The position numbers and the translations under genes were made by a program. The notes beneath the pieces are model-generated. The model saw only the letters and a program-made list of their open reading frames with translations, ran no database searches and was not told the origin of the DNA. From contig CM114271.1 of NCBI GenBank assembly GCA_050084515.1, forward strand, positions 21,638,001-21,702,000: DNA of 64,000 nt, given 5' to 3'. Shown piece by piece: positions 1 through 45,800 of the stretch. How positions within the stretch are numbered: position 1 is the stretch's first letter; every line of letters starts with the position of its first letter. This DNA comes from Blasia pusilla (taxonomy: Eukaryota).

Positions 1-479
1 ATGACATCAAATTTCAACTAATTTCATATGACACATGCATGGTTGGATGAAAGGCCAATGGAATCTTGATACCTCCTGAATTTTAGAGGGTGAAATTGTT
101 AAATATTTTTATGATAAAATAGATTCTTATGAATTCTTTGAATTTAGTGGTAATTCTTTCACCCTCTTCTATCCTAACCAAAACCTCAGGAGGGCTAACT
201 TATGAAAGGGAGTAGAAAATGGCAATCGAGAAAACCCTACTATAAACCAAATTCACAAAGAATAGCAAAATTTTTAGTAGTAGCTTAGGAATCATGATTG
301 GAAGGAAAGAGGCCTTTAGTGATAGTGTCTACCACAATTTGCGTACACCTTAAAAATCCGTTGGTTTGAGCACATTGCAACGTACTCGAGATATGATAAT
401 TATTGTATAAGTCTATAGTAGCAAGGAAATCTGGATCTCACATGGATCATATGAGTTCACTCAAATAGAAAATTGTTAC

Positions 480-700
480 TTGGTGCTTGGCCCAAGGATC
501 TTACACCTTCCTTGCCTTCTCCTTATCCCCACACGTAGCTATACCCTTTATCTCCCAAGGTTAGTGTCAAGGTGCATGCTCGACTTGCATTGACTAGTGT
601 TAGTCTCACTGCCAGTGTCACCCCTATTCCTAGTCTCGTGACAAGCTAATATGGGTTTCAATTTCGCTGGGTCACATGAGGGTCTCTTATCCTTGGAGTG
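480..700. repeat. Dispersed repeat (probable decayed LTR-retrotransposon sequence), homologous to ~44620-44800
   Basis: Shared blocks include 'ttgactagtgttagtctc' vs 'ttgactagcgttagtcct', and 'gggtcacatgagggtctcttatccttg' vs 'gggtcacaccaaggtttctcttccttg'. The LTR origin is inferred only. Confidence 0.45.

Positions 701-19127: not shown

Positions 19128-19219
<92 letters not shown>
19128..19219 (+). repeat. (CT)46 microsatellite
   Basis: An uninterrupted CT dinucleotide run is seen directly. Confidence 0.98.
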
Positions 19220-19561: not shown

Positions 19562-20080
19562 AAAAAAAAAAATTAAGAGTAGTAAGAACGGCACACTCGG
19601 CCTAAAACTCCACTCCTCAATCTATATCGGCATATCGAGCCTCGTGCACCCTACGCTATCAAGGAATCCGGATACTAGCACCCTAGTCCTATCTCACACA
19701 CATACAAGAGAGGTGATCCAACGACCCAATATGAGGAAAGAGACTGTCAGACAGAGATCCAAGAGAGTTCAACAGCAAGGAGAGTGAGAAGGGCCGTGGG
19801 GAGAGGCAATTGGACCGAGTGCAAATGAAGTTGGAAGAAGGGGTGGTATTGAGATGTGAGAGGCGGAGAGTCAGGGAATTGACGACGTATGTGTGTGGCG
19901 AGAGAGAGCAGGAGGAGGAGCAAGGGAGCAATGATCGGCCATTGGCTGCTGCCGGGCTATGATGGATTGCTGCCATTTCTGTTGTTTGTGCTCACGTGTG
20001 GGGAAAGATGGCTTGGGAAAGCCATCTTCCTCCCTTATATAGGGTTGAGAAGAGCCAAAAGGCTCTTCCCCTAAAAATAG
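19562..20080 (-). mobile_element. LTR fragment, inverted homolog of 32505-32757, with a ~270-bp extra block
   Basis: 19572-19735 and ~20015-20080 match the reverse complement of 32505-32750, including the 'ccctatataag' TATA region and 'gaagagccttttggctct'. Confidence 0.75.
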
Positions 20081-20104: not shown

Positions 20105-21410
20105 CGTACATGTTATCTCCAGGATGAAACCTCATAATCCCTAGACGATAACCTCCTCCACGAATGGTCACGTACCTCAATGTATCTCTATGCTGAGCAA
20201 TAGCTAAGTTCTCAAAGGTCATAGGCATAACTCTACAAAAAATCTCCGCTCTCTAAGAACACACTTATACCCACACATCTGGATCATCAAGATCTAACAC
20301 CTCCGCCATGTCACGTCGAATAGCTGCAGGTAAATATGGCTCTCTCCCAAAGAGCAAAAAATATAGTGAAAATGACGCCAAGGATGCCTGCCGACTAAAG
20401 CGATAACCCATGGCCAACCATGGCAACTGTAGGTCCCACTCCCTCAACTGTCCCCGTTGCAAGTCATACTTGCGCAATCCTCTCTTCATCGTCTGTACTA
20501 GTCTCTCCGCCAATCCATCCGCCTCAGGATGATCTCTGGACGTGGTGCGGTGATCTATCAACGCCTCATCACACAAGGCCTGAAACTTGCCCCTGAACTT
20601 GGTACTCTGGTCAATCAACACCTCCTCCGGTGCACCAAAGTGACTAAGCACACGATCTAGAAATGCATAAGCTGTTCCTTTCCTCGCCTTGTCCGGTTGT
20701 GCCACCAACTCTATCCACTTGGAGAAATGCTCCACCATGACCAACACGTACCTGTGATGGCGTCCCGTCAATGGCAAAGGTCCCGCAAAGTCTAAACTCC
20801 AACGATAACCTAAACCCATAATCGGCAAAGGATGTAACTGCGGAGTGGGAGCATTGAAGGATGCTCGTACTCTGTCACATACCATACATCTAGCCACAAA
20901 CTGCTGTACCCTTGTATGCATGCCGCGCCACCAATATTGAACTTGGAATAAGCTGTAAGTACGCTTTACTCCAAAATGCCCCAACTCCTTATGGGCATGT
21001 TGCACTACACATGCTCTATGGGAAGGATGAGGCACCACTTGTATCCTACCATCTCCCCATACCCGCAAAATGTGAGTCCCCTCCCACCTGAACCTCTGGC
21101 TCTGTGTAGGATCCGATCCCGCTCCCTAGCACTCACTATGCTCGCTATGACGCCAGTGCGCACGAACTCCACAACCTCCACCTCATCATGGATATCACAA
21201 CCACTTGTCGCCTCCTCATTGACCTCCGGATCCAAAGACTCATCATCCAACCCCACCACTGGAGTCATCACGTGTGAGTGACCTACCATAGTCAACCATC
21301 AAAGATAGGCATATGCATGCCAACCGGGCACCATCTCCTCATCACTCTCTCCATGCCATCGAGCTTTTGTGTCGTCTCTCTGACTCAGACATGGATTACG
21401 ACTAGCTCCT
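20105..21410 (-). mobile_element. Ty3/Gypsy pol fragment (RNase H-integrase linker plus integrase); same family as 58.3-61.4 kb
   Basis: The HHCC zinc finger is HAHKELGHFGVKRT...CMVC. The DDE core is WSLDFAGP / VLIDQS / GLAERL. It is colinear with 59760-61050 and truncated at both ends. Confidence 0.92.
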
Positions 21411-24634: not shown

Positions 24635-27600
24635 TTACTCAGGAATTTCTGCCTCATCCCCAAAGTGTAGCCAATCCCAGTTTGCAATCTCTTTCTCCTT
24701 CATTCCTACACTTGCTCCTACATTATCCTGACCCTCCCAAGATTCAGACTCATCAACGACGCCCTCATATCGTGCTGCCATCTCAGCCGCTTCTCTGAAT
24801 ACTCTCTACATTACAAATGCAGCAAACATCCACACCAACTTAGTAGGATGCGAAGTCTTCACACAGCTCTATTTTTTTACAGTCAACCATCATGAGATCC
24901 CACCGGATTCAGGATGTATTCTGACTCATGAATTCTCCTACTAGCAGTTTTTCTTTCTGCGCTATGAAGCAGATTTAGTGCTGGGGTTTCATGCAAATCT
25001 CTCCCTCCCTGATCAAAGATAATGAAAAATTTGCTGTAGTTTCTCTTGGGTGGTCTGATTCGCTCTCCTTGTAATTTTGCTGTCCTGCAGTGGAACATGA
25101 TCTGACTACAGAGCAAGATAGTGGAGATTCTTGCTGAAAGAGGATTCACTGGTTTGACTGTTGATTCTACCTAAACTGATGTGAGTCTACCTGGACGTGA
25201 GTCACGTGTGTGAGATTCTGTCTGGGCAGTCAAAATGAGCAGGCTAAATTCGTGAGAATGGCTAAAATTCAAAGATCTGCCAATGAGGGTCTATAACATA
25301 GATAATGAGCCAGAATCTTGGAAAAACAAAAGTACCTCTTTATCCTGGAGAATGAGCCCTCTAGTGCTTTCCAAATCTGCAGTGCTGCAGGGATAAAAGC
25401 CAAAAGCAATCAGTCTCTATTTCTGACCATAATAACACAAAAATCTTCATTCCGTTCAATGCTGGATTAAAAATTTCCTCCCATCCTCCTACACAGTAAT
25501 CATCAGGTGAGTAATGTTTGCCCTAATATCACCCAAACTAGAACAAGCAATACAAGTTGAGGCGACTGAAAATGGGACACAGAGCAAACGACTCCTTACC
25601 TCAGTGCAATTCTGTGAGGAACAGGAGATTTCACCACCAGCGCTTTGACCTTCTCTCCAACAGAAAACACTTCCTCTATATCTTTCACTCGAGTGCACGA
25701 AATGTTGGATATGTGGATCATACCCCTGCAAGGAAAACCAAAGTGGCCTCACTTGAGAATTACAATAAATTCAACTGAAGATAGAAACTATTGCCATGCT
25801 GCTGGTTACTGCACCAAGCCTTGGTTCGAGAGCTAGAATTTCACAAAATGAGTGCCCCTTCAGCATGGAGCTTGATCTGAGGTGGCCTTATAATTACACC
25901 TGCGTATCTGCTTGTCTACTGGATACTTGGAATACACAAATTCTGAAAATTGACACTTCGTTATAGAATACAAGCTGTGATTCTCTGTGGTGCAGAGTAA
26001 TTTCACAACTTCATCTGGGAAGGTTCCTCACTCCAGTTATCATTGATGCAGCTAGGAAGTAGACCCCATGAGGTACTGCTGGTTTGAAAGACTGGCTACT
26101 ACGCAGTGCCACCTGTAGCTCTCCCACTAAAGATTAGTGCTCTGCATGGCTGGTAAAGACAGTCTTTTGGAACTACAGTGTGCTCCATATGTTAACAATT
26201 AATCAATTTATTGTAGCTTTACTGTTAACTGGTGGTAAGAAAAGCTGAGGTTCTTAGAGACAGGAATATCAAGAAACATACCGTAATGATGTGCCAGCTA
26301 TGCTGATTTCTACTCCAAAAGGAAAGATCTTTACAACAGTTCCCTCAAGCAGTGCTCCAGGGCGAAGGTTCCTCCAACCCTGTGGGAGGGCAGCAATTTG
26401 GACAAATTCTATTACACAAAAAAACAAAGGAACCAATCCAATGTACTGACAGTTGCCAAGCTCAAGGAATCTTTTTTGTAAATCCGTGTTATGTCTACTT
26501 ATATTCTTACTGTAAACATGGAAGAAATCTTACCCATGCTCGTTTCTCACTCACAATCAGCTTCCTTGAAGCTTCATCAACCTCTGTGATCAACACATAA
26601 ATCCGCTCCCCAACCTATCACAGTTGGAGAGACTCACACAACTGAGAAAAAAAAAAAAATTAAACTGCATTCCAGTGACAGAAACTGCCTTGGTGCACAT
26701 TGAAAGGCTCCAGCTCTCAAAGCCAGTTTCAGAGCATGGATCAGAGGAAAACTGGACTGATCGAAAAATTGTTGAACTGAAAAGAAAGCCGCTAGGCAAA
26801 GCGTAGATGTCACTAGATATCACATACTTTTAGGACATGGTTGATCCAAGCGCCATAGGCAGGAACTCTCAACTCACATTCAAGCAGAGAATTTGTGAAG
26901 CAGCCAAGTTCCTAGCTTCATTTAACCAGGCTCTTTCATGAAGTAACAGAGACATCTCTAACTCTGGTCATGAAGACAAACAACAACAGCAGCAGAATAT
27001 GACATGTTCAACTTACCATCCCCTTCAGAGAATTTGTGCTGTTTGTTCGATTGAGAAACTGGTTGATGGGTAAAAACGCCCGAATGCCCTACAGCCAAGC
27101 CACTATAAGCGGACAATTCGACAGTCTCAAGATATGAATCTCCAACTGAGTCGATTTACCATCTTGGAACTCTTAAGAGCTCTTTATTTATTGCTGCACA
27201 TAATCCTACAGACACCGCATACCTCGATCATGCCAACTAGTCCACCGGAATTCCACTCCAAGATATGCAACTCGAATGGCTCATTCTGTTCTTGAATCTG
27301 CAGATAGGGGAGAGAATCACGAAGATAAGAAGTATTTCTCCAGAAATGGAAGGTCTAAGCAGATTTAGTGAGACCCATCGTTAGGTACCAGTTGTGAAAA
27401 TTCGGGAAAAAAAGTATTAGACAAACACTTGAGTACAAAGAATTTAGAACTAGGGTACTAAAAGTTTGGGATTCCATAGATGAGAACTGGTATGCTTTCG
27501 ATCATTAAGCAAAGCAATTCACACATTCAGGTATAAGAAACCTCCATTTCTCAAGGACGCCCAGAGAGACGTTTCGAAGATTGCCTCTCCAGACGGGGAT

Positions 27601-28754
27601 GTGATCCCCGCCACTAAGCTGCAAGATTCGTTACAAGATAATAATTTGGCTTGTACCTGCCGAACACGCTCCCAGGCTATTGAGTTCGCGACTTTCCTGC
27701 TCGATAGTAACGGCCTTCCACTCAAAGTCATGCCCCGCACTTCTAGATTCAGAACCGAGCCAACTTCTACAATCGGCCCTCTTCTTGACGTGATTTTGAA
27801 AGCCTCTTCCTCACTCACGATCCTAAACTGACCGACGGGAGGGTCTTGCATTTTCTCCCCTTCATCTTCCTTAAGCTCCCAGAAGTGCTCATCTGATTTG
27901 AATGAGTCCAGAGGATAAACGTCCTTCGTAAGAAGACGCCCTAGCTGTTCAGAACCGATGTCAACGTCGAGTTTGTACTCGTTGCCAGATAGTACCAACC
28001 CCATCACTTCATCTCCAGCTTTTGGAACGTAATACTCAAGGTCTTCCAATTCCACGGGTTTGGGGGCATCGCGTTTAATGAAAGGGAATGAAGCCGACAT
28101 GTCGAAGTCATCGGAAGGAATCAGGTCACCGAGATCTTGTGAGGGCCTTCGGACACCGAGGGATCCCCTCCTTCGTTGCTTCTTCAGAGCTTTAATTTCC
28201 TCTGTGAAAAAGGGGATTTCGTCATCAGCGGGCCATACATTTTCGTCATCTTCCTCTGGTACATCCTGACTGAAACCATTTCCATTGCCAACTCCGGATT
28301 CCTCTACATTTCTTATCAGAGATTCTGATCTATCTTGAAGAGGCTTACCATCCCTTGTCTTATTTCCCATTCTTCCCAGTCCGTTACCCAAAATTTCTGG
28401 TTCAGTTCTCGACGATGTGCTCAAGCTCTCCAGTCCTCCGTCCCTTCCCACACTTCTCCATTCATCGGAAGGAGTCTCAGGCAAGCAAACCTCTTCGACA
28501 TCCGTAAGCGAAGCGGATTGTACACCGGGGTCGTCGACGTCGGCCAATGTCGCCGCAGGACTGCAAGAACTTGATTTTGCAGTCCGTCGCTTTCCTCCCA
28601 ATTTCAGGACCTGCTGGCCACAATATAGCATGCGGCATGTTCCAGATGATCTTTGCAACGGCAGGGCGACGGACTGCAAACTGCGGAAACTAATAGGCCG
28701 CGGGTAGGGAGCAGCAACGGCGCAGTACGACGTGCCCCCGGGATGGACAAACAT
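24635..28754 (-). CDS. PDE338: Chloroplast-targeted S1-domain RNA-binding protein (PDE338/RLSB/BSF-like)
   Basis: Exons are 28754-27657, 27297-27223, 27088-27017, 26614-26534, 26379-26282, 25725-25600, 25384-25336 and 24805-24635; all are GT-AG and in frame. The N-terminus is Ser/Arg-rich and transit-peptide-like. S1 repeats include YYVPKAGDEVMGLVLSGNEYKLDVDIG, EWNSGGL..EGIRAFLP and LEGTVVKIFPFG..GMIHISNIS. The C-terminus carries ANWDWLHF. Confidence 0.88.
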
Positions 28755-28918
28755 GGCGAGCGATGAACAATTCCCCCAATTTCACACGTCTCCTACTCCT
28801 AATCCCACCACAATCCCGTGTATTTTTCTGCTCCCAACATGGAGTGTCGCGTCGTCCCCAGACCTCCAATCTCGCGTCCCGTAAACAATCTGTGATCTCG
28901 ATCCCCAGAACTGACAGT

Positions 28919-28932: not shown

Positions 28933-30353
28933 CACCCTCCTCTACTGATCCTCCGTTCGTTTGTTCACGCATATTATCGGTGATATGAGGACCCGGCACC
29001 CTGTCCGCTACAACTTCCTTCTCCGGTGGACCGCAGTCATTCGCTGTCTGTCCTAGGAAATTACTGTGAGGAAACAGAACCAGCGAAACTTCTGATAAGT
29101 TAGTTTCGGACCGAAGACCGTCGGATCTTCGAAGCAACGGCCGATTCACATGCACTTGGGTTGGATGGGATCTTGAGGACCATGGAGATGCATGGACGAT
29201 CCACCCGAACGTCGTGAGTGACGAGAACGTAAAATCATTCAAAGACGGATTGTAGGGTCGGACGTTCGAATCACTCAAATTCCGTCCGCCCCGTCGGCGG
29301 TGAGAGCTTACCTATTACTCACGGTCGCCCAAGTCCACTACTGGTCTATTAGGGCCACTCGCTTGTGTCCCGTGGGGTCGGACGGGGGCTCCCGTCGAGG
29401 CGGGTTACGGCCATGAGCCGTTCTCTTCCACGGCAGCCCAAAGTTGGCTCCCGTTTCCCCTCAACGGCGATAACAGAAATGCCCGTCTCAGGAGAGGGTT
29501 TGGCAGGTTTTCAAACTCGATGGGCAGGGCATTTTTTACTAGATCGTGGAGGTGGGCAGATTGTAGTAGAGCACGCTTATGAGGAGGTGGGCAGATTGAG
29601 GTAGATCATGCTGAAGAAGGTGGGCAAGGGAGATCACGTTGATGAAGGTAGTAGTTCATATAGTAGTTCATAGACGCTAGAGCATACTTACAACCAAATT
29701 TTGAGTGATCAATCAGGTATATGAGTTGCAAAGCTCCACTCTACCGACGAAAAGCAAATGACGTGTGTCAATCGTTGCATGATATTTTTTTCTGGTGCCA
29801 CACTTTGGATCTGAGCAATCCCGTCCTACATGAAGTCGCCTCTACCATTGCCCCGACTCAAGCTTACTTGACTACTTTCATAGTCATGCTATGGAAATGG
29901 TGAATTGTAGTTGGGGGCAGGACCTCAAAATTTTGAGAATTTCTTCCAATTCTCTTCATCATCTGAGCAGTATGTATTCCCCAGCTAATTCAGTGTCTTA
30001 CTCCAAGTTTGGTTGCTGTTCCTAGCTATTTGATGATTGAAGATTGAATATGGGGAAGAGAATGATTGAAATGGGCTTTTTAAACCTTTGATGAGCTGCA
30101 CCCTTCCCACATGTAGAAATCCTCATTGATATGTAAATGATTTATCATAACACATCAGCATGAAACTAAACCTAATTCAAGCTACCTTGAAATATTCCTT
30201 GTTTGTCACACTGCTATATTTTATATTTCCCTAGTTCCTTCCAAGCATGTGATATGTGTGTTGGTTCAACCTACATCTAATGCTATAAGTGAATAACATG
30301 TGGTTGTGCTTAAAACCAGAGATTGCTTCGTGGCAAAAACTATGCTCAACACC

Positions 30354-31755
30354 ATGCCAAAATTATCAGATCGGCAAGACATTCTCAAGACCATGGAACT
30401 CAATTTACAAGCATAGATTATTGGTGGCGATTGAGAGGATTATGAGTTAGACTCGAGTGAATCAGACTTTGTGGCATCTAACAATGAAGGTGATCTCGAC
30501 CTCAGAGAAGAGCATGAGTACCTTGCACTTGAAGAATCGGAGGATGATGAGTATGAGTTGGGAGGAGACATGATTGAACTCTACTCGATCATATCTGGAA
30601 GTAGGTACTTGAACCACCGGGCAGGTATTGCGAAAAGCAAGGACTACATTGAAAACTTTTTCTTCAACTTGCCTCCTGCTGGTTTTAGGCAAATGAAACT
30701 AGACACTTTTCAAGAACTTGTATCCTTGATTGAAGACCATCAAGTATTTCACACACCAAATTACAACTTCCAAGCTAATGTGGAAGTACAATTGGCAGTT
30801 ACATTGGACCGTTTAGGCCATAACGGTAATGGTGCATGCCTTTCCCGTTCTGTCTTCTTTTGGGGAATATCACAGAGTTCCATGATCAACTACACGAGGA
30901 GATGCATGCAAGCATTGGTAGACATACTCAAAAGTGAAGTCCAATGGCCACATCAATTGGAGCGTGCAAGGATTTCCTAGTTGTGTTGGGTTGATAGACG
31001 GAACACTACTCAAGCTGAGTCAACGACCAAAGAACTCTTGAGAGACCTACTTTGATAGAAAGTCTAACTACTCCTTGAATGCGCAAATAGTCTATGATGA
31101 CAGAAGGCGTGTAGTGTAATCTACATTTTCATAAGTCAAGTTCACTATCTCTCAACTTTGAATTCCAACTTAAGATAAGAAAAATTGTATTCTCATAATT
31201 TATCTTGTATTTGTCATAGGTATGTTGGGGTCGGTCCAAGACTTCACATGCTTGAAGCGTTCAGGTTTGTGGGAAGGGATGAACTAAGCACACTATTTTG
31301 ACAGAGATCAATACCTCTTGGGGGATAGTGGATACTCACCACTACCACATTTGGTCCCTGCTTTCCGTATGGCTTCCGGGAACAAAGATAAGGAGGATTT
31401 CAATTTTTGCCTTGCACACGCAAGGGTCGTCAACGAGCATTGTATTGGTGTACTTAAATCGAGGTGGCATTCTCTTCGTGAATTGAGAACGCATCTAGTT
31501 GAAGCACCTAGTAGCAAGCATGTAGTGAGGTGGATAACTTGTTGTGCAATCCTCCATAACTTTGTTACGAATAGAAATGACTTGTGGACGGATGTCGATG
31601 AGGATATCTTACTGGAATTAGAACCGGAGCACGCCGTTGGAGAGAATCTCACACCACAAAACCTGAGAGACAAGGGTCTGCACATCCGTGATGATGTCAT
31701 GAACACTTGTTTGAGTTTCCACAAGCAACCGCGTGGACTTCTCCGCCAAGGTTGA
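30354..31755 (+). pseudogene. Harbinger-type (DDE_Tnp_4) transposase pseudogene with one probable intron (~31120-31219)
   Basis: It starts MPKLSDRQ and contains QLAVTLDRLGHNGNG (HTH region). Catalytic motifs are CVGLIDGT, YFDRKSNYSLNAQIV, GSVQD, LGDSGY, ARVVNEHCIGVLKSRW and CCAILHNF. There are in-frame stops and a frameshift near 30980. Confidence 0.88.
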
Positions 31756-32273
31756 GCAATAGCCCTTGGTTGAAGTACAAGTCAAGGACGCTAGTAGTGG
31801 AGACTAGATTAGGAGCACTCACCAAGGGCTTGATATAGATTGAAGTTCTACTTTCTAATTTCATCTTTCTCTGAGAAATAAAATTAAGTGGATCATGATT
31901 TCTTGCATTGAAGTTTTACATGGTCTTTGCGTGTGGCCAACAATGGTCTAGGTTCAAGCTCGTTCATTCTCTCAAGCATTATAGCCACTTGAAAAAGGAG
32001 TGCATCTGAGAGTTAAGCATCTAAGTGTGATCAGAGAGTATATTCCAACTTAGAATGTAGGGAGGGTAGCAACTTCAGTCCATGGTCTCAATGTTCACCT
32101 TGAATACCAACTCACAACAGGTAGTTGGAGTTGCTTGTGGAGTTGCAACCTTCTAGGAAGTTGTGAATTCCATATAGTGAGAAAAAAAATGTGTTGGCTC
32201 GAAACATGATAAAGCCTGCTATGGGAACAATCATCAAATTCCTGATCCACAAGGATAACCCCAGAGACAACCT

Positions 32274-32757
32274 TGTCACATCTGAGTAGCCGATAGGCCA
32301 AGATCTATCGTGGATAGGGCGTAGGAGCCAGCGGACTATCTTGAGTGTAACTTTGTCCCAAGGTGTCGGATGAGGTTGAGGATAGGTCCATTATGTCAGG
32401 AACGTTGTTTTTTATAACTTTCATGTTGAGGTCTTTTACAGCCGGGTGACTTGTTGACCAGGTCAGCCGCCCCCAGTAACCTATGCGCGTAGGTTACCAA
32501 GGGGAGGGCTATTTTTAGGGGAAGAGCCTTTTGGCTCTTCCCAACCCTATATAAGTGAGGAAGCTGGCTTTCCTAATCCATCTTTATCATGTTGGGCCGT
32601 TGGAGCACCTCCCTTGTATGTGTGTGAGATAGGACTAGGATGCTAGCGTCGAGATTCCTTGATAGCACAGGGTGGACGAGACTCGATATGCCGATGTAGA
32701 TTGAGGAGTGAAGTTTTAGGCCGGGTGTGCCGTTTTTACTACTCTTTATTTTTACAT
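32274..32757 (+). mobile_element. Complete-looking LTR (TG...CA, ~484 bp) nested in the PHIS element
   Basis: It begins TGTCACA and ends TTTTACA, with an internal TATA box (ccctatataag). A second copy is at 19562-20080. Confidence 0.65.
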
Positions 32758-33399
32758 GAGAAAGATGTCGGGGGGCTAGTGGGAATTCGTTGTTTGCAGG
32801 TAGGCAAGCAAGTTGCCTTGGTCGGGAGCCCGTGGAGACGTTGCTTGGCGTCGTATTTGTTATTTTTATGTTCAGAAGGTCGTGGGCGGAAGCGCTGTCC
32901 ATTTTTCTCAGATTTTGCTGGTGCGGATTGATGGGGGACAGCAGAAGGGTGTAGGGCAGGTTGTGACGGCAGGTATAGCGTCGTGTAATAGCGGGAATGT
33001 CGGGATTTAGCAGGAAGGAGAGTTAGGGCTTGCAGCCGCCGGGGGGCTGTCAAGTAAAGGGTGGCTAGGTCGCGAAGGCTAGGGTTAGGCGACGGCGGGC
33101 GATCGTTCCCCCTCCAACGTGGTAGGACCAAACATGGTTGGATGGCGACGTGGTTGAGAGTCCGCATGTGGTCGAGATCATGTCCACGTGGTCAGATTGG
33201 GCGTACGTGGTAGGTGGGAGCCGGCCAGGGTGAGTCAGGTTACATGCCGCGAGTGGGGATGGACGGAGAGCTTTGCGCGACATGATGTTTTTGAGGTGCG
33301 ACAAGGCGTTGCGAGAGTTGACGATGGAGGGGCAGTGTGCATGATGCCGATAGGTTGTCCGCATCTGTTGACGGGAGGATCGAAGTGTTGGTCGAGAAG

Positions 33400-33730
33400 A
33401 GTGTTGTGGTGCGAAGGTTGTCATATCACGTGGAGGAGTGCATGTTGACGGTGCAATAGGTTGGAGGGCATTATCAAGTTACCCATTCGAGTCCCTTTTC
33501 CCGCACTTATCATGTGTGATTGAGAGTGCTAGGTATCAGGTAGTAGCTGGTGCTAGGTGGGTGCAGTGATGGTAACGAGTGTAGATTTTATTCATGTGTA
33601 GCATGTTGGTGGATATACGGTTGTTGCCGAGTAGGGGTCGCGTGTATGATCCGAGAGAGTGTCGCTAGGTTAGGTGAGTCAGTTGGGAGGCTCATGGTGA
33701 GCCCGAGTGTTGAGTGTGCGTGAGGCCGGG
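33400..33730. repeat. Unclassified repeat shared with 63480-63830
   Basis: Shared blocks are 'gagtgttgagtgtgc(g/a)tgaggccg' and 'ccgagtagggg'. Confidence 0.5.
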
Positions 33731-33804
33731 CAGGGCACCCTCAAAGGGTTATATACAGCCAAGAGAATTAGTTTATAGGTTTTAGGGTTAGGGCCTGCCG
33801 CCCA

Positions 33805-34388
33805 TAGTAATTTTCAGAATTACTGAGGTAACTCTATGGTAACAAGAAATTACTATCTATTGTGATAAAACACTAAGTTGCTATAGTAACTCTATCAGTT
33901 ACTTTTCACTATAGTAAACTCTAAGTCACTATGTTTTACAACACTCCCACTTAACTGGAGTTTAATATAAGACCCATCTTCTGAGCACATTTGTTGTGCT
34001 TTTCTCTTGACAATGCCTTTGTCAATACATCAACTGTCATATCCTCTGTAGGACAATATACTACTTGGACTATTTGCTCATTTTCTTTCTCCTCTATAAA
34101 TCTTCTTATAATATTTATATGCTTAGTCCTAGGATGATGAACATGATTCTTGAGAAGACTTATACTTCCTGTCTCATCACAATACAATACAATACAATTC
34201 CATCATTCCGCTTATAACAAACCTCCTCAAGCAATCTCCTTAGCCAAACTACTTCTTGAGTAGCATTTGAAGTTGCCATAATCTCAACTTCTGTTGTGGA
34301 CAAGGCAACAAATATTTGTTGCTTGCTGCGCCAACTGATAGCACCACCACTCAATGTAAATACATATCCACCAGTAGAGTTGTTGTTG
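33805..34388 (-). mobile_element. Ty1/Copia 3' fragment: RNase H, PPT and start of 3' LTR
   Basis: Translation gives STGGYVFTLSGGAISWRSKQQ..ALSTTEVE, YCDETGSISL..HPRTKHINI and MTVDVLTKAL. The stop at 33951 is followed by PPT GTGGGAG and an LTR start TGTTG at 33943. Confidence 0.88.
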
Positions 34389-34826
34389 TCTTGTAGCTAT
34401 CTTGTAGCTATCCACATATCTGTCATATTTCTTTTGAAGTACGTTAGCACTGAGCAGAGTGGGAAATCCAACATTTTTCAAGTGGATTGCCATGATACCA
34501 AAGGCCGTTGTCCTGGTTTGATTCTTCGCCCCAACCTTAGTCTTATTTCCACTACCATGCAAGGCGGAAAAATTTATGGGGTCTTCCAAGTACTCCACGA
34601 TCCGTTCATAATCAGCCAGCGACAACCTCCATCTTTGTTGCTTCCCTGCAAAAATATATTTCTTCACAACTCCTTGCCCACCCATGTTGGCCCCACTCTC
34701 AACTTGAATTTCCACCTCTGAATTGTCTGTACTCTTACTCTTGAGCACCTGCACTGAATCCCACTCTTCCTCTCGTACACTAAGAGTGGCACACTCTAAA
34801 ATTCTCTCTCCGAGAGTTTTGTCCAT
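34389..34826 (-). pseudogene. PHIS accessory (Myb/SANT-like DNA-binding) ORF, N-terminal part, truncated by the Copia fragment
   Basis: Translation gives RWRLSLADYERIVEYLEDPINFSALHGSG..TRTTAFGIMAIHL..LQKKYDRYVDSYK, a trihelix-like pattern. It lies inside the TIRs, convergent with the transposase. Confidence 0.6.
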
Positions 34827-35511
34827 GATTAGAGCCTTTTAAACATAAATTCTTCTACACTCCACTCATGAAATTTCCCATAATTGTTGTAGGAGGGAAA
34901 CCAACAAGGAGGTAGGAGGGAAACCAGTAGCGGGACAATTCAATTTCAAACAAAATGTAGGACTTTTCTTGAAATCAATCACATTCTCTCCATAATCTAC
35001 GAGCACCGCTCGTGTAATTAGTGACTACACCTTAAATGACCAGCTATACCTATCAGAAGAAAGAATAGCAAAAATCTTGAGGCAGAATATAAGAAATCAA
35101 CAACTTAAAATTGACAATTGAAAGTGCCAACCCAAAATTTTCTCAAACCTCTTAATTTGTATCTATGCCACTCACTAATTATTGGTGCTCTCCACGAGAC
35201 TTAGTAATTCATAGATGTAGCTCTCTTTATCTGAACTGCATGCTCCAAGTATTCAAGTCCAATCTTGACGCTTGCTGAAATGCGCGCTCTTTCATTCAAG
35301 ATCCACTACGGCAAAAGTTGACGGAGTGTGAGAGCAGCGAGAGTGCTTTGGTTTGAGAGCACCCGTCGGCCCAACCTATGCCCGGTATAGCTTATAACGA
35401 GAAGTGTCAAAGCTTACACCCCAATGCCGTTCACATCCCCCGTCCCAACATTACAGGGATTTTTTTTTCCCTGTTGCCCTCGCAACGGATGCAAAAATGA
35501 GTGGCCCTATT

Positions 35512-36140
35512 AGGGCATCTCAAATTTGTGTCCGTAGGTTTGGATGTCTTGTCCATATTTTTATTTGTGGTTTTATGGCAGATCAGGTGTGGGGTGCCGA
35601 AAGATGTCGACTCTCATCTCGCCTCTTAAAACGTAGAGACATGCTCCCGTGACCTTTGTTTACTTCATGTCAAGTGAAAAGTAGGGAACCTCATAAAATC
35701 ATAGACCTTGTGACGTAGATAAATACCTTCCTTCTTTTACGGTCAATATCTTTGGAGACGTTCGAGGACTTACGTCCCACTTTTTGAGGCGCATTGTTTA
35801 GCTCACATGTTTATTTATGGTCAAACATTCAATGGACATCCAAAAAATATATGTTCTAAGAGGATGTCTCATAAATGCACTTTAGGGTTGGGCATTTTTA
35901 TCCGTAAGTTGGTGTATGGTCAAAGATCGTCCGCCATTGCGAGGTGCCGTCGAAGGTAGACGCTCATCTCTTACGGTCAAACGTCCAAGACTATTGTCCA
36001 TGTATTTTACTCACACACCCTAGAAATCATGGAACCTAAGAACATTGAACTTCCTCTGACATAAATGGAGGTCATTTGTATTTGGTGGTCAAAGGTATGA
36101 AGGATGTCAACAAATTTACGTCCTCCAAGTGAGACGCCCT
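35512..36140. mobile_element. 629-bp non-autonomous PHIS element (MITE-like)
   Basis: The ends are AGGGCATCTCA and TGAGACGCCCT (10/11 inverted match), flanked by ATT and AAT. There are five internal (T/C)GGTCAA motifs and no coding capacity. Confidence 0.7.
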
Positions 36141-36143
36141 AAT

Positions 36144-37350
36144 AGGGCTCACTGCATGCTTGCTTGTTAGTGCCTCCTACGGGGATTTCTTGTTGTTGGA
36201 AAAGGCAAGTGTAAGTTGGTTTTTATTTGCACGTAACGGCAACGAGTTGTTTGTTTCCCCATCCCTTTCTTCTCGCTACAATGAGTTCATCTCCTCCTTA
36301 CCAAAGTATCATGGTGCGAGTTTAAGCTGGGAGAGAGGAGCTAGCTTAAGTGAGATCTATATCCATCTTGTTTGAGCATGAGGGGAGGTCATCTAGCTTG
36401 ACGGGAGGAAAAAAAAATAACTATTCATATGATTTTGGGGTGGGAAGGAGAAAAAAAAAGGGGACTTTCCATTACTCACATTCGACCCCATTCTTCTACA
36501 ACTAAAGCTCAAGATTGCTCTCCAATAGTTGACATTGCATGGTGAGAAAACATGTTCTTCCACTCCTCTCCAATTACGCATGTTGTGTTGTAGAGTGGTC
36601 GTAATCTCATTCAACTTGAAATCAATAAAAAAAAATGTGATTGTGAAGGCCATCTATGGATTGCTAGCCAACATACATTTGAAATGACTCCATTCGACAT
36701 CCCCAATAGTGATTAACTTGCATATCATCAAGATTGGAAGGGAATGGTTATCGATTCAAAATTTTCAATTGCTCTTAATATACTTCAAAGAAGTGTATGC
36801 TCCCTTATCATCTCATAAATTATGAGATATTGGAATCATGTTTGTCTCAAGCTAGCTTGATCTTTCAAGGTTGTCCACCACAAGCATCATATGTAACCAA
36901 TTCAACAACCAAACATTAAATATTTGTTATGTCTGAGGAAATTTGCATGACTAAGTTGCAAGTATTGTTATTCATACTACCCAACCAATGGGCTCCTTTT
37001 CTCATCTTGTGAATATCATAAAACATAATCTTATGAACTATCGATGTCTTTCCATGCCCTATCATCTTTTTCTAGGGTAGGAGCACGGGAAAACATGTTG
37101 ACACTTTGAGATAGGAAGGAGTTGCTTTGAGTGATTGATAATGAACTTAAACTCAAGATCATGTGCACAGACAAAGGCAACTCAAAAATGCTTTTCAACA
37201 ACTCACAAATTGATCTTCTTGATGATATAGATAACATAGACCAAGCATTTAGTATGGAGGACCTCCAACTTGAAAACTTGAATAATGATGAGTCTCTTGA
37301 GCTAGAAAGCGACTTGCTGAATATGTATATGTGTACTTAAACCAATAGGT
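36144..37350 (-). mobile_element. Decayed PHIS-like element, copy A (homolog of 41503-42830)
   Basis: It starts AGGGCTCACT right after AAT and is colinear with 41503-42830 throughout. Minus-strand remnants GC.IGYI, HDSNI and DDKGAY resemble Harbinger motifs. The right end was not identified. Confidence 0.55.
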
Positions 37351-39414
37351 GGCCCTTTGGTCCTTTGAGAGGTGGGAGAGAGAAACGAGTAAAAAAAATT
37401 GTAGTTCGATTCACCACTAGTTTGTATACCAAGTGTATACCGGGGAGGAAAATAATAGGACGGACCCTGGCCCCACGGAGAGGGGAGAGAATAGGATTGG
37501 AAGAAAAAGCTTGTAGGTCATATATCTACATACAAAATTGTACTTCGTTTACCGACATGTAGGTGTATATCACCACAGGGAAGGAAGAGAATAGGACGAA
37601 GCGGGAGAGAGAATAGGACCGAAAGTTTTGGGAATAATTAATAGGAGGCTCCAAGGTCCGCTCACATGCATTAAAGTCACACGAATATCATTAACATTAA
37701 TCACACAAACCTATGTCACATGAATCTTATTAAACGGATATACGGTAGACACAGATGCAAAACTTTGATCCACAGTATGGAGAAATCACACAAACCAAAG
37801 TAGTTTGCCCAACCGAGAAAAAAAATGAAGCATACATGTAGGGGGCGTAACTAGAGAGGGTTTTCACCAAGTTGACAACTTTTATTTTCCTTGCCTTGGC
37901 CATGTCTCCTTTAGACAATTGGCAAGCATGAATATTGAAACTTTTAAGGGATTAGTTACCTTGATTAAGGAATACTTTGCATTCTACATGCCTATATAAA
38001 ATGTGCAACTTCCTCTTGGTATGGTTGGTTGTAGCATCAGATAGATATCGACATATTGGAATTATTTCCTGCATTTATATATGTAATCTCAGCATATTAT
38101 TAAACTTGAACAATTATGAGCTTCAATAGTACTTGAGAAGAGCACAAGACCATTGCTAACTTATAACTCGTCTCCTGTTGTAGATATCTTAGGTTGGGTG
38201 GGTTCCTTAATTTGTTTTTTTCGAGTAGGCATTGGCCTTCATCAAAATTAGAAGTGGTCATGGTTTCCCACATCCAAAACTTCTTTGTTCGTTGTTGCCC
38301 CATTTAGTTCAAACGTATTGCATGGCTTTTATGGCTTGAGACAAGGAGGAGTTTGATGCTTGCTTTGCCCACATTTGTTGGTAGCTGAGCATTGTATTGG
38401 GCTTCTAAGATCCCAATAATATTTTTGTGCAAGCTCATGAGACAATTGAACGCCTCGTGTTGAGTCATGCAATTAGAGACGTTGCTATGTGCCTACATTT
38501 ACAATGTCTAATTGCATGAACTGGTGTTGATCCTAATGAGAGACTTAATTGGTCTTTTATTATGCAACATGGCCTTGTACTTAGGATTTTTTTCTCACTA
38601 CCTCGCTCACCACCAACTCCTGAATGTGGTGAGAAACACGATATTAAAGTTCGAATGAATATTTGAGCTTATGAAGCCATTTTATTGAGTTGTATTCTTG
38701 GATGTCCCATGTATGCTCACAAACTATGTTTGGTTATCCGCTTTTGGAATAAATTATGAATACACTCAGACATGTGTAGGGGCAACTTACCATCTTCCGG
38801 ATGTGAAAAATATGGATAACACAATTTCATGCAAGCTCACAAAATTCATAGAATAATCACAACTGAGTATGACTAGTTACTCTTAGTAGATACTTTGAGT
38901 GATATACTATGATTGCATAAGGATCTTGGATGAGAACTAGAGTTTGAATTCATAGAATGTATTCATAATGCATATTGAGAGTACTAACTCTTAAATCCAA
39001 GTACATGATTTTGGATTTTGAGTCTCTCCTCTTAGCATGGACATAAAGTTGATGTATGGCTTTTACATAAAATCTGGTGACCATGGACTTTGAGTTCAAA
39101 TTTAAAATCAGAGTACCTAAACCTCTTGAAAAATTACTAGATGGCCAACAAGAATAATTTTTACTCAAATTTTATCTGAAATCAAATAAGCATACACTTT
39201 AGCCACATGCAAAGGTTTCATGATTATCCTAAGGTAGAAGTACATACATGCGAGATCAAAGACATGAGCATATCCATGCAAGGAGTTTGAGAAATTGCAA
39301 TATCATAAAAATAGGGAAGGTTTCATTGATAAAATTGAAAGATTTTAGATTGTTATATGTTATCTTGCTTATCTAAGTCCATGAACATGTGCACAAATTT
39401 TGGAATGTCCATTT

Positions 39415-39486
39415 AGGGCATCCCCACCTTACAACACTCAATCATTTGTTGAACCCTCTTTAATTTTATATATTGGCTCTATTGGT

Positions 39487-39553
<67 letters not shown>

Positions 39554-41499
39554 CATATGCTCTATCTCCACATCTCCATCTTAGTCAAGCCGCCTCCCAT
39601 ACGCGTCAGGATCTCTACCCTCAGCTTATTGTAGGAATCCACATATCAATCAAGTTTCTCTTGCTATATGTGCATGGTAATGATAGTAGGGAACCAATAT
39701 TCTTTAGAAGAATAGTCATGATGCCAAAAGCTATAGTCTTTGTCTAATGTCTCCCACCCATATTTGTCTTCTTTCCACTTCCATGGAGGATTGCAAAATT
39801 CTTAGGGTCCTCCAAATATTCCATGGTTCTGTAATAGTCAGGAAAACTCAATCTCCATCTTTGTTGCTTGTTTGATCAAGGGACCTTCTTTGATAAGAAC
39901 CCATCTTTTGAAGTGAAACATTACTTGAAATAATTTTCAAAATTAACAGAAACGTTGAAGCGCCCTCAACATGATCATCGACGGTCATTTTGGTCCATAA
40001 CATATTTTAGAGCATTACAAGCTAGAAAAAATTCAATCCTTGATGATAATGAATGTGAAATCAAGAACCTATTATAGGAAAAATAAATTGAAGAGGAAAA
40101 AATCAAGAACGATCATAAATTTTCCCCGTACTTTAAGGAATATTCACATTCAAAGAAAAACAAATCTTCCAAGAAGATAAAAATGCACTTAAGGGAAGAG
40201 AATGTCATGGTAGATGAGAAGCAAGATAGTATCGAGGACTTAGAGGGATCTTGTACTTCCCTATTTTGAGAGATCATATATAACCTACTCTTACGAGGTG
40301 ACTTACAAGTGTAGGTCATCCTTTCTTTATGAGGAGTGGCAACCTTGGAGAGGTTGACCCGCTCATCCTTTATGTGGAGCCACTTGGGCCTATAGGATCG
40401 AGGGTTAGTTGGTCTTACCAGAAGACCACAGTTGTAGTTGTTAGGGAGTTGGTTTCTTATGTACTTCATGATATTGGTGACCTGCTAGGAGGAGGTTACA
40501 TATGTGTACAAGTCACCCATAGAGGTGCCCACGGGAGTATACCTTGGATGAAGCTCATTCAGAGCACATCTTCCTTGGATTAGACTTATGTTGGGATTTG
40601 TGATACAATGCATCTTGCATGTATGAGCCTAGGTTCTCTCTTGAAGAGTGGGCTAGGATTGATTGGAGATCAAACACATTGAGAGTTTTTTCCAAACTAT
40701 CTCTTATTTTTACCGCAATGTGTATCATTGAATGGATGTTTGGATGAAGCATATATAGCCAATTGCAATTTTCATCAATATCGCATCTTATATTGGGGTT
40801 GTCCACTCGTTCATATGTAAATATGTTAGGACTCAAAGCTATATGGATTTTAGACCTATGTGCATGACAAATGATATATGTTGGCAGTGATCTCTATTTG
40901 CACGCAAGAATTCAGAAATATGCGCAAGTTACGGGCAGGCTAATTCCTCCACACTTTCAAATTTAAAGGTAATTTGAATTTTTTTGTTTGAATCAAATAT
41001 GGCATGGCGCAAACTTAGGTAAAAAAGCTCCTTCAAGTCATGATATATTGAGACTCCTTCATGACGTTGAGTTGAAGTGGAGATCTTGGTGGGAGAGATT
41101 GGTACTCTCAATACCTTTGTTAGAGTTGGCCATGATCCGTCCACCATAGTCATGAATACACACAAAGAAACTCCCCATAATTTGTAAATGTTGGATGTTC
41201 ACCATGACATAGGAGTTAGTCGATCGTGTTTTCAATTTACTGTAAATATTTGGCCTTGTGAGCAACCCTCAAGGCTTTTTTTGGCTAGTTAGGATATTTT
41301 CAATTTAGTTGCTTGTGAAGGGGGGAGGGGGGGGAGGGGTTCATGTGATGGGCTCTTTATTGTAGATAAATCTTGGAGCTAGATTGGTAGCTTCGCATAG
41401 CCTTCACATGAGAGGTTCATTTAACTTACCAAAAAATTTCATTACGTGAAGCTTATGGAGTGCTATAGGCCATCTCTAGGGCCCCAAGAGAAACACCCT
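39415..41499 (+). mobile_element. Possible further decayed Harbinger-like element
   Basis: It ends ...GAGAAACACCCT before AAT. Plus-strand remnants GCLDEAYI (IDGT-like), GSDLYLHARI and LGKKAP..YIETP occur in Harbinger motif order. The left end (AGGGCATCCC at ~39415) is uncertain. Confidence 0.35.
39487..39550 (+). repeat. (TC)n microsatellite with one interruption
   Basis: Seen directly. Confidence 0.95.
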
Positions 41500-41502
41500 A
41501 AT

Positions 41503-42830
41503 AGGGCCATTCGAAGGCCCCATTGTATGCTTGCTTGTTATGCCTATTAGTGCCTCTCGCAAGGATTTCTTATTGTTGGGAACAACAAGCCAAAGTCAGT
41601 TGTCATTTGCACGTGATGATGATACTTTTTGTCTCTATCCCTCTCGTAATGCTATAGTGAGTATGTCTCCTTCTCACCGAACTGTCATGGTACGAGTTTT
41701 TGTTGCAAGAGAGAAATCATACATCATCGTCCAATTGCAATTTGCTCATAAATATGGACACGCTTAAGGTGGTAGAGAGAAATAAAAAACCATATGCAAG
41801 GATGTGAGAAATCTAGAGCTAGCTTAAGTTGGGAGCGAGAATTCAACAACCATGTGAAAGGAAAGGAAAATCTAACACGAGCTTAAATTAAATCAAGATC
41901 TAGCTTGTAGGAAAAGGAGGGCTTGGGAGGTCTCCTTGCTTGGTGGGGGGCAAATCAACAAGTCTTGAGAGGATTTTCGGGTGGGAGGGAGACAATTAGG
42001 GAAACTTTCCATTGCACAATGGAGGCACTACCTAGTTAGCTAAAGCTCAAATTTGTTCTATGGTAGTTGACATTGCAAGGTGAGAAACAAAATTCTTCCT
42101 CTCTCTCCAATTTAGCACGTTGTGTTTTAGAGGGTCTTTCTCTTTTGGAAAAATCACGAGAACATAATTATAAAGTGCCCTATGAGCTCCTAGTCAAAAT
42201 ACAATTAGGAGAATCCATTCAACATTCCAACATTATGATTAATTGGTCAAAGTATCGTATACTACCATAATTGGAAGTGAGTGGCTGTTGATTAAAAATT
42301 TAAAGTTTTCGCGAGGAAACTTAGAGAAGTGCATGCTCCCTTATCATCTCATATTTTTTGAGATGTTAGGACCATGTATACCCCCCTACCAACCTAATAT
42401 TTCAAGGTTGCCCATGTGTAACCAATTCAACAACCATACTTGAAATATCCACCTTGTCTAAGGAAGTTTGCATGACTCAGTTGCAAGTATTTTTATTCAT
42501 AATATCCTACCAATATGTTACTTTTTTCATCTTATAAATAATATAGTACTAGAATACATCTAATTTTGAGCTATAAATATTTGTTCATGCCATATCATCT
42601 GCTGTCTAGGGTAATAGCATATGCCAACATGCCAACACTGTCAAATAGGAAGGAGTTACTTTGAGCGCCTTAGAATATACGTGAACTTGAGATCATATGA
42701 AAGGAAAACGTTGATTGAAGTTTATTTCCAATCACTAAAAAATCTATCTTCTTGATCAAATAGATAACATGGACCAAGCATTCAATATAGAGAACCTCCT
42801 ACTTTAATACTTTGGCAGTAACAAGCCTCT
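41503..42830 (-). mobile_element. Decayed PHIS-like element, copy B (homolog of 36144-37350)
   Basis: It starts AGGGCCATTC after CCCT-AAT. Shared blocks with copy A include 'atgcttgcttgtta', 'gttgacattgca', 'tgtaaccaattcaacaacca', 'ataggaaggagtt' and 'gaccaagcatt'. Confidence 0.6.
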
Positions 42831-45800
42831 TAGGTTGGAATGTGACTTTCCTTACCTATATAGGTGTATCTAGAAGAGTATGTACTTCAACCATAAAGGA
42901 GACACTGCTAGGGATGAAGGGGTCAAAAGGAATCCTTTGCGAGTCTATTTTTTTGCAAGGCGGATCCTTTGCAAGTCCAATGCTTGTCCAATCTTTTCAC
43001 TCCACTTTGTGTGAGTCTAGAACAATTGGACAAAGCTTTATGAGCTAACTTAGCTTTGCAAGTTTGTAGAGTTATTTTCACTTTGTGAATTTTGCAACTT
43101 ACAATATGCTCACAATACACTTTCAATGGAATTTGAGAGTCGAACTCACAATAAGACTATAAATATTTTTTTTGCAACTCACCACGTTTGAAATGTACAA
43201 ATATGGGGAGCCACAAAGCATTGTGACTCTCCGTAGCCATGACATAAAAGTTTGCAACTTCCAAGATTTGCATGTTACTCGCAAATAGAGTTGTAATAAA
43301 GTCACAAAAAGCTTATATTAGAATGGTATGAGTTTCATAAGGCTCAAAAACTCAAAATGCCATCACTTATGATAACTAAAAAAAATTCCTTTTGTCCATA
43401 TTTTATTTTGACGTATGTTGCTTTACATGTTACCGTAGTGTTTTGCTATATCACTTGCTATGTTATCTTAGTGACATGGTAGTCCTCCTTATATGACTCA
43501 ACCATTGAGTCATATAGGAAGGACAATAATTCCATGACAAAAAATTGGTTATAGTTGACCTAGTTATTCCAAATCTGTGATTTGGCTTTTGTGACTCAAC
43601 ACGTCTCTAGGTACTTCCCGTCATGGATCGTGATATATGACTCAAATAAGTCATAAATCCTAATTATAAAACACAATTTTTCATCTTGTGTTAGCCACAC
43701 TTTGGATCAACCAACCTTCTGTCAATTTTTTTTTTCAATCTCATCCGTTCTAGAAAAGGTCAGATACCAGCCTAAACCCTCAATTCCCTACACATATAAA
43801 CCATTCAAAACTTGGGAGAGACTTCCATCTTAGTATTCGGATCTGAAAACGATGCAAGTGTGTTTGAAAGTCTCAATTTCCTAATTTTTTGAAATCTAGA
43901 TAAGATACAATAAGGTTGTTGAGACCTCCAAGTGCGCGGTCAAGAATTGAAAAAAATAACCTTCATGGAACCCACTATTTTTGGTCAATGAAGTCATGAA
44001 TTTTATTTTAGCGAGCTTTATGTTGTTTTTTTGGGGAATACTTTGGTAACTACTTGCCTCAATGTTTGGAATCCAAGTTTGAATATACAAGTCTAGTATT
44101 TTTATATCTTTGATTAGTAACAACGATGGTGAATCCTAAACAATTCCTTAGCTCAAACCTTACACATAGCCCAAACACGAAACATGGCTAATCCCTTAAT
44201 CCAAGAGTTGAGCATGTAGGGAGAGAGAGAGAGAGTCCCTCCTTATATGTACTTATGGATTTTTCTAAGGAATCCCACCTTTCCCATCATTTACCAAGGG
44301 CCCTTGATTTTGGCCAGCAACCCAAATGCGGTTTGCGTATTTCCAACCTATGTAAAATAAATTAACTTCCAAGATAATTTGGAGGAGTATCATGGAAAAT
44401 TATGTCCATCATGACATCCCCGAACTCATACTTGAGCTTCAACCCACCTTTTATTTATCTTATGGATAGTGTTCGTATTGACTCCTACCATTTGGCATTT
44501 CATGGTTATCTTGTTGCCCATTATGATCTTTGAATAGTGTCACGACATCTTGGCCCTCTTGACCACTCACAACTCCCTTGTTATTTGTCCTTGAAACTCA
44601 GTTTATGGCTTTGATACACTTCTTGCCTCACCCTCATCCCTTTAGGTGACTACACCTCTTTTCTCATGAGGTTAGTCTTAAGGCATGCGCCCGTCTTGAC
44701 TAGCGTTAGTCCTCCCGCCCCTTCTAGTCATGTGACTAGCTAGTCTAGGTTTTGACTTGGGTGGGTCACACCAAGGTTTCTCTTCCTTGATCTGTGATCC
44801 TGACTCATTTCTCAAATTCTCACTAGTATGCATGCCATAGGCATAACTATTTGCAATCTTTGTGTGTGGACGGATTACGAATGCAATGCAAGTATACTAT
44901 GAGTAGAATGTGTCTCTGGGTACTTGTCATGTGCCTACTCTCTTGAACTTCAATCTCAATCTCATGTGGTGTAGAAGCTTGCATTTGGTAGGACACGCTC
45001 ACACTACTACTCGACATTTAAACACACTACATTAGTCCATTTCTCAGAGTTCTTTGAGCTCAACAATTTCAACCTACAGTCTTTTAGACTTGGGAAAGAC
45101 TTCTTAGATAGTCCAAGTTCGGTTCCAACTGCCCAATATGACTATCTAGAGGAGACCCAAGATATGAGTCATGAGTCAATCAAGCTCAACAACTTTTCTA
45201 ACCCCTAGAGTTTATGTTTCAAGCACCAACTCCTCCCAATATAGGCTAGTCTTTATAGGGCTCCTCTTTTAGGCCCTCAATCCAACTACAAATTTGATAA
45301 AGACTCTATTCATGCATTTGTTTGGAACTTTGGTGTATTGGAATGTTCTTTGCATAAGATTTCCAACGCACCTTATTCTTCCCAAATGCACCTTGGGTCT
45401 GGTTTTTATGACCTTAAACACAACAAAAACCTGAAATGATAGTCAAGTTCCAAATCCCCTCGGTGCCCAACTCTCATGGGACTTGAGTCTTCTCAATCTT
45501 ACAGGTTTTGGTTCCAATGAACTTGAAATAATAAGATTATCTAGTCTCCCTCAAGAGACTTCAACAACACCAATCCCAAGATATGAGTCATGAGTCAAGG
45601 TCACAAAAATGTCTTAAATGTAGTAGTGATAATAGACCAAAGCTTTGAAATGGTACTCACATATTTGTGGTGTATAGTAAGTTGATATACTAGAGGTGTT
45701 GCCAAAAAAATTTAGAGGGTGAAATATTTGACCTTTCAAGGGTTTTTTTAGAGATATTGATGATAAGAAGTCAAAAGTTTTGGGTAATGAATACCCAAAA

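Follow-up and report, generated by a model that had tools for sequence, protein, structure and literature searches.

How can several transposons come to lie end to end, none interrupting another, with exactly three nucleotides between each element and the next? The question is raised by a 64,000-nt stretch of plant-like eukaryotic DNA from Blasia pusilla (contig CM114271.1; G+C ~41%), the whole of which is called the window here and from whose first base all positions are counted. It holds a train of four transposable elements, units A to D, of the PIF/Harbinger-ISL2EU-Spy superfamily (PHIS), which an earlier note on this DNA had explained by self-regenerating CT-AWT-AG target sites. We tentatively favor, at rather less than even confidence, an account in which four members of one PHIS lineage inserted serially, each newcomer entering the A-N-T triplet that bordered the end of a resident element; sequence specificity for the CT/AG context is not likely to be the reason for the stacking.

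The four junction strings listed in the earlier note are all present. At the left edge of the train the host/A junction reads CT-ATT-AG (29346..29352; host side ...GGTCT-ATT; string gtCT-ATT-AGGGCCACTC from 29344/29346), and the outermost host flank, left of unit A, is CT-ATT as the note had it. The linker between A and B is ATT (35509..35511, in the string GTGGCCCT-ATT-AGGGCATCTC from 35501), or TA-T-TA in the other register (35508-35512); that between B and C is AAT (36141..36143, in GACGCCCT-AAT-AGGGCTCAC from 36133), and that between C and D is again AAT (41500..41502, in ACACCCT-AAT-AGGGCCATTC from 41493). Each of these three linkers separates two distinct units, bearing out the description of one element ending and another beginning 3 bp on. 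The units abut precisely and no PHIS unit is broken by another, which agrees with the earlier view that the elements stack without mutual disruption; the sequences nested within A and C are non-PHIS repeats. Within the 64 kb, the 11-mer CCCTAWTAGGG created at the abutments has three matches, confined to the junctions (35505, 36137 and 41496), where dinucleotide-preserving shuffles of the window average 0.03 and none of 100 reached three. Three exact abutments cannot be due to chance. A TIR-pair scan (TIR, terminal inverted repeat) of the window for more AGGG...CCCT elements returned the train only, the remaining pairs looking like chance. At 56876-56896 the sequence ...CGTGCCCT-AAT-AGGAC... 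resembles a solitary right end set in CT-AAT-AG; a search of the window yielded no TIR to pair with it, and the resemblance is probably due to chance.

Unit A (29351..35508, plus strand) is a degenerate PHIS element of autonomous type, 6158 bp long, whose TIR, AGGGCCACTC...GAGTGGCCCT, pairs at 10 of 10 terminal bases. The remnant of its DDE_Tnp_4 transposase gene at 30354..31752 on the plus strand is split between two frames, holds two in-frame stops and probably contains an intron. The transposase open reading frame (ORF) matches Pfam PF13359 (DDE_Tnp_4) at E 9.7e-12, tblastn with the liverwort proteins P0002 and P0006 covers 30354-31743 at 41-47% identity, and the closest proteins, from Riccia and Calypogeia, are 43-64% identical. 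Convergent with the transposase is a second ORF, ORF2 (34287..34838, minus strand), which belongs to no Pfam family. It has 81 homologs at E<=1e-3; a Pfam scan of 26 of them found a Myb/SANT family in none, and a word-based search with ORF2 in the near-length class gave no match. The structure model of ORF2 (pLDDT 73.5) contains a conserved core, residues 68-146, whose best VIA matches are middling ones to the Zeste DNA-binding domain (Z 7.4), the GT-1 trihelix (Z 7.0) and the TRF1 Myb domain (Z 5.4), and a Foldseek search of the model against PDB returned no match at E<=0.001. The modeled core likely folds like Myb/trihelix DNA-binding domains, and a DNA-binding role for ORF2 is likely. The left subterminal region of A carries a 35-nt tandem duplication, 83% identical (29548-29617), which is a possible candidate for a binding-site repeat of the element's DNA-binding protein. 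Between the two genes lie about 2.4 kb of nested, unrelated high-copy repeats (31857..34250); within them 33951-34202 (minus strand), which has no Pfam match, resembles the C terminus of a copia-type polyprotein. A 29-nt inverted match of 79% between the transposase region of A (31501-31529) and the left end of C was treated as chance (1/112 pairs).

Unit B (35512..36140, plus strand) is a 629-bp non-coding MITE (miniature inverted-repeat transposable element) with the TIR AGGGCATCTCA...TGAGACGCCCT, which pairs at 10 of 11 terminal bases within an inverted pair of 19 nt at 95%. Its left end resembles that of A, with an alignment score of 36, where shuffled sequences average 20.8 (sd 3.7) and reach at most 33. 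Unit C (36144..41499, plus strand; 5356 bp) is a degenerate element of autonomous type with a weak TIR (AGGGCTCACT... / ...GAAACACCCT). It retains a DDE remnant on the plus strand (38289-38372; 54% over 28 aa) and, on the minus strand, a remnant that is 61% identical over 72 aa to ORF2 of A (39631-39890), from which it follows that C has the gene order and orientation of A. Unit D (41503..~42883, plus strand) is the truncated left part of a C-related element, about 69% identical to the left ~1.2 kb of C (C 36144-37350 against D 41515-42883; 69-80% in blocks). Neither a right TIR of D nor further C-like sequence was found in the window, so the right boundary of the train, placed at 42830 in the earlier note, is approximate. 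The left terminus of C aligns to D only from the 13th base of D (36144-36170 against 41503-41545), D having 12 extra outer nucleotides (AGGGCCATTCGA) before a second AGG(G/C)C-like motif, and the right end of C carries the longer, D-like form; one family thus seems, from these alignments, to use two alternative left ends. Units A, C and D share one orientation and B probably does too; for three to four units chance would give this with a probability of 1/4 to 1/8, which is not significant.

The assignment of the units to PHIS, made in the earlier note, is supported: A has a DDE_Tnp_4 transposase, C a remnant of one, and ORF2 is common to both. The TIRs of the train are short, perfect over 10 bases in A, nearly so in B, weak in C and represented by the left end only in D. 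All seven ends in the window are bordered by A-N-T; beside AGGG...CCCT the flank consistently reads A-W-T, with equal triplets on the two sides of A and of C and unequal ones on those of B (ATT left, AAT right). The canonical TWA duplication does not fit, in that ends taken as GGGC...GCCC give A the flanks TTA and TAT. Maize PIF has the target CWCTTAGWG. Like canonical PIF/Harbinger elements, those of the train combine short TIRs with DDE_Tnp_4 and a second ORF, which is probably of DNA-binding type, and they have a flank motif of 3 nt and an extended preference that is palindromic, but the flank is ANT rather than TWA, and the TIR motif used for mining plant PIF elements, G(N)5GTT (PMC2213677), is absent here.

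A closer counterpart is the Pangu group of PHIS, said to equal Repbase Harbinger2 (PMC12730594). In the text of Han 2015 (PMC4482050), Pangu elements make 5'-ANT-3' duplications confirmed by paralogous empty sites, have TIRs that start with AG or GG and two ORFs, the second without known motif, are ~3.5 kb long when autonomous, and are known from animals and fungi, from a heterokont and from two algae. The likeness lies in A-N-T at both ends, the AGGG start, and a DDE transposase accompanied by a motif-less second ORF in A, in C and in the relatives described below. The differences are that the nearest proteins here are from liverworts, that the middle base of the triplet is often unequal between the two sides (unit B and five of eight relatives), which the portions of the Han 2015 text drawn on here leave unmentioned, and that trains are not described in those portions. 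By these descriptive features the units fit the Pangu group and not canonical PIF/Harbinger.

Flanks of solitary insertions were read in relatives from metagenome contigs. When these contigs were scanned with an alignment of the DDE part, 80 loci came up (31-47% identity, 312 kb), among which a scan for TIRs and duplications recognized eight complete relatives (L001, L002, L008, L010, L036, which is identical to L037, L053, L071 and L073); single ends were added by homology to the TIR cores of these, for 28 non-duplicate ends in all. The relatives encode a DDE_Tnp_4 ORF of 436-489 aa and a convergent ORF of ~400-460 aa without Pfam family, which in L001 and L002 is homologous to ORF2 of A. A-N-T-A precedes GGGG at 26 of the 28 ends, in support of a role for the bordering triplet, and the choice of ends put no condition on the A at position -4 or on the outer dinucleotide. 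Position -5 is T at 14 ends and C at 9 (pyrimidine at 23/28). The triplets are equal on both sides in three of the eight complete relatives (L002, L010, L073) and differ at the middle base in the other five (L001, L008, L036, L053, L071); in L001 (ATT/AAT) and L053 (ACT/ATT) they differ despite TIRs that are perfect over at least 18 bases. Duplication of AT, of the ISL2EU type A|AT|T, fits only three of the eight (L008, L036, L071), and duplication of TWA fits none. Empty sites of the relatives were not found among the 80 loci, the 21-nt terminus of A had no match in the metagenome scan, and a scan of viral_contigs with the transposase alignment yielded nothing confirmed.

These observations can be joined in the account that we tentatively favor. 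The units would belong to one lineage, marked by TIRs that open with AGGG, by A-N-T flanks, by a transposase of DDE_Tnp_4 type and by a convergent, Myb/trihelix-like ORF2. A single original ATT would suffice as the first target. A newcomer would then integrate into the A-N-T triplet directly beside the end of the resident element and, because A-N-T is the flank triplet of the lineage, every insertion would leave a triplet fit for use both to its left and to its right. The elements' own end bases, the final T of ...CCCT and the first A of AGGG..., fit the pyrimidine/purine preference just outside the triplet, so that a resident end would also satisfy this part of the target. Repeated use of the bordering triplet would yield a non-nested train with constant 3-nt linkers, and such linkers are found at 3/3 junctions, as re-use of a duplicated triplet predicts. 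Why that triplet should be chosen is a guess: the incoming complex may be tethered by the element-encoded DNA-binding protein at the resident end. The anatomy of the train, its type of family, the A-N-T flank across the lineage and the differing copy numbers of the units are observed; that the units came in series and used the bordering triplet again is what we infer. The earlier claim that each insertion rebuilds two targets survives for the A-N-T triplet, found on both sides in the relatives, and fails for the CT...AG context around it.

Several points weigh against this account. It concerns one locus only, and ANT triplets by themselves occur much too often to account for three exact re-uses. 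The flanks that inform it come from distant metagenome relatives at 31-47% DDE identity, and since their ends were partly picked for a preceding TA, a count of TA at 28/28 would be circular and this TA-based choice counts on the unfavorable side. No abutted ends or junction-like motifs occur in the 80 metagenome loci (312 kb). The unequal middle base of unit B and of five of the eight complete relatives is unforeseen by plain 3-bp duplication and is at odds with the reading of AWT as a simple shared duplication; it would fit either a duplication of TA within ANTANT or the carry-over of overhangs from the donor site.

The first of these fits underlies a rival that we regard as doubtful, if well within reach: that TA is duplicated within A-N-TA-N-T, and that four elements of the form GGG...CCC each took one in-phase TA step of a host run upstream of the gene that resembled (AWT)5 (ATT ATT AAT AAT A..), making the train a trinucleotide PHIS counterpart of the SaTar arrays of Mutator-like elements (MULEs). 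Unit B, with ATT and AAT, would then need no mutation, an in-phase (ANT)n tract automatically gives the pyrimidine at -5 and the purine at +1 seen in the relatives, and the site is promoter-proximal. In the eight complete relatives, TA flanks GGGG...CCCC in every case, with ends partly selected for TA, and A-N-T is equal on both sides in 3/8, where ~2/8 would be expected by chance, given how the bases are used at N. Such filling, however, must have occupied all four leftmost steps without residue: immediately left of the train stands TCT instead of an ANT triplet, and no repeat tract lies at the left edge. SaTar linkers are variable tracts, whereas those of the train are minimal at 3/3 junctions. 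Runs of (ANT)>=4 are rare, with one in 64 kb outside the junctions, and (AWT)>=4 has none; a second in-phase ANT is present at only 6 of ~26 relatives' ends by hand count. The text of Han 2015 moreover reports a 3-bp ANT duplication at Pangu empty sites (PMC4482050).

The second fit leads to a reading that we consider unlikely, in which an excised element would keep the 3-nt A-N-T overhangs of its donor site and have them ligated into the new site, the sticky triplet letting elements stack seamlessly. Any A-N-T would pair with any other save at the middle base, leaving unequal sides in young copies, and stacking, whether elements re-enter the triplet next to a resident end or are ligated directly, would build gene-proximal, non-nested landing pads without a microsatellite. 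The piggyBac element carries over its TTAA overhang, and bacterial IS30/IS911-type elements form abutted-end junctions; with different transposase families, both are analogies only, for travelling overhangs and for attractive close ends. Excision of PIF/Pong (mPing) elements has been modeled as staggered cleavage of the target-site duplication (TSD) with 3-base 5' overhangs, a middle-base mismatch being tolerated, in the text of Gilbert 2015 (PMC4561436); its extension to carry-over is an inference of our analysis and not a claim of that paper. Overhang carry-over would make a 3-nt duplication with an unfaithful middle base reconcilable with the empty sites given in the Han 2015 text.

The same staggered-cleavage model and its 3-base 5' overhangs (Gilbert 2015, PMC4561436) would also serve a further rival, to which we assign a low probability, namely that elements excised together were ligated to one another through their A-N-T overhangs, also into an excision gap. 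Such joining predicts exact 3-nt linkers with a free middle base (T, T, A, A here) and needs no target preference. It would require four diverged families to excise together, of which C and D are low-copy and degenerate, such concatemers were not found in the literature searched, and abutted ends are missing from the 80 relatives' loci.

About as improbable is strict recognition of CT-AWT-AG, under which elements that start with AG and end with CT would rebuild two full targets at every insertion and specificity alone would drive the stacking. The sole host flank available does read CT-ATT, L001, the closest relative, has CT-ATT on its left, T is the commonest base at -5 (14/28 relatives' ends), and extended palindromic targets are known in PHIS, such as C|TNA|G of NuwaII in the text of PMC4482050. 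Yet the outer CT occurs at only 3 of the 28 solitary ends, position -6 being A at 15 and C at 5, and the right side of L001 reads AAT-AT, not AAT-AG. Within the window CTAWTAG shows no enrichment (8.1 matches expected, 11 present; 17/100 shuffles reach 11), and 7 of the 11 sites are unoccupied, one of them at 28690, 656 bp from the train. At the first abutment, moreover, the element supplies only half of the palindrome, and the unequal triplets of B require an extra mutation. The solitary ends and the empty window sites together speak against the earlier proposal that the CT...AG context is the target.

Whether the train arose by insertion at all bears on the abundance of its units. Raw reads of one run (X9) and contigs of three others, all under the same species label, were placed at >=85% likeness. 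Summed X9 depth is 0-0.2 in host bins, 4.6-12.1 in bins of A alone, ~2.5-2.9 in B and, apart from the nested repeat at 40122-40672, 0-2.7 over C and D, with C close to the single-copy flanks; the excess over host bins makes the family of unit A multi-copy. The host-A junction is bridged by a contig (X2 record 9, 29162-29392, 2 differences), as is the A-B junction (X1 record 7, 35468-35715, 1 difference; also X2 record 15), at 99% identity and a single-copy-like depth of 2.7-2.9; the two runs concerned, X1 and X2, are not necessarily independent of the assembly. Among the pieces listed, none bridges B-C or C-D, among 15 joints listed of 47 none skips a whole unit, and among 24 loose read ends listed of more than 1500 none lies at a unit terminus. 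Since the units differ in type and abundance, the train is not one fixed composite, an outcome that the earlier note had named as fatal to its proposal. That no serial insertion took place, the train being a fixed composite, a diverged in-situ tandem duplication or an assembly artefact, is very improbable: the co-orientation of A, C, D and probably B would suit tandem duplicates and B-C and C-D are unconfirmed by the reads and contigs listed, but A differs from C/D at least 10-fold in depth, the host-A and A-B contigs are near identical and single-copy-like, C and D are only ~69% identical with all junction 11-mers intact, which in-situ decay would not have kept, and the shared orientation has a chance of 1/4 to 1/8.

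The repeats nested in A reach an X9 depth of 276-1339 (both directions summed) against ~5-12 elsewhere in A, with loose read ends at 32273/4, 32753, 33655 and 33730, and the segment 32509-32753 matches 19568-20080 at 89-94% identity. Beside the latter lies an ORF for a long terminal repeat (LTR) retrotransposon integrase (20268-21125, minus strand; Integrase_H2C2 and rve). The repeat nested in C (40122-40672) has X9 depth up to ~78 and a loose end at 40359. Reads appear cut at two (CT)n microsatellites, 39487-39550 within C and 19128-19219. X9 comprises ~2 Gb of reads (~1% of the run) and leaves single-copy bins ~0-0.2 deep, from which the genome is, by a crude measure, very large, roughly 10 Gb or more. 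To the left of the train, which begins ~570 bp upstream of it, stands a host gene ORF on the minus strand (27519..28781), a 420-aa open frame without a Pfam family at E<0.01, for which PDE338-like is the putative name given in the earlier note.

Non-nested arrays have precedents. The SaTar arrays consist of unrelated MULEs targeted to microsatellites and set end to end (Valdes Franco 2018, PMC5907723), and clusters of Ac-mMITEs are known from pineapple (PMC8449440). The train resembles SaTar in that different elements follow one another with none interrupting another; in contrast to both precedents, which are Mutator-like, have 9-10 bp TSDs outside microsatellites and are joined by variable microsatellite linkers, its units are PHIS elements of the DDE_Tnp_4 kind, joined by an invariant linker of 3 nt (or TA-W-TA), and no repeat tract is left over. 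In MITE multimers, Tourist-type and other MITEs often lie adjacent to or inside other MITEs by independent insertions, according to passages of a review (PMC5172404), and nested insertion is commoner than adjacent in MITE clusters, as summarized in part of the SaTar paper (PMC5907723); those passages contain no description of successive elements, full-length and MITE, that precisely share a single flank triplet. The earlier suggestion that the arrangement was undescribed therefore holds in part: ANT-flanked PHIS elements (text of PMC4482050) and non-nested arrays (PMC5907723) are published, while the literature searched, whose coverage ended short of the Han 2015 supplements and Jiang & Wessler 2001, yielded no mention of PHIS trains joined by single triplets or of the unequal middle base.

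If stacking at the bordering triplet proves regular, it would be a second route to non-nested arrays, mechanistically different from that of microsatellite-targeted MULEs, and many elements could gather next to a gene with no destruction of that gene or of one another. That young copies have unequal middle bases is relevant to the way in which PIF-type transposases cut and rejoin DNA, through 2-bp duplication, 3-bp duplication or overhang carry-over. On the basis of one locus and distant relatives, land plants would be added to the groups that carry Pangu-like elements.

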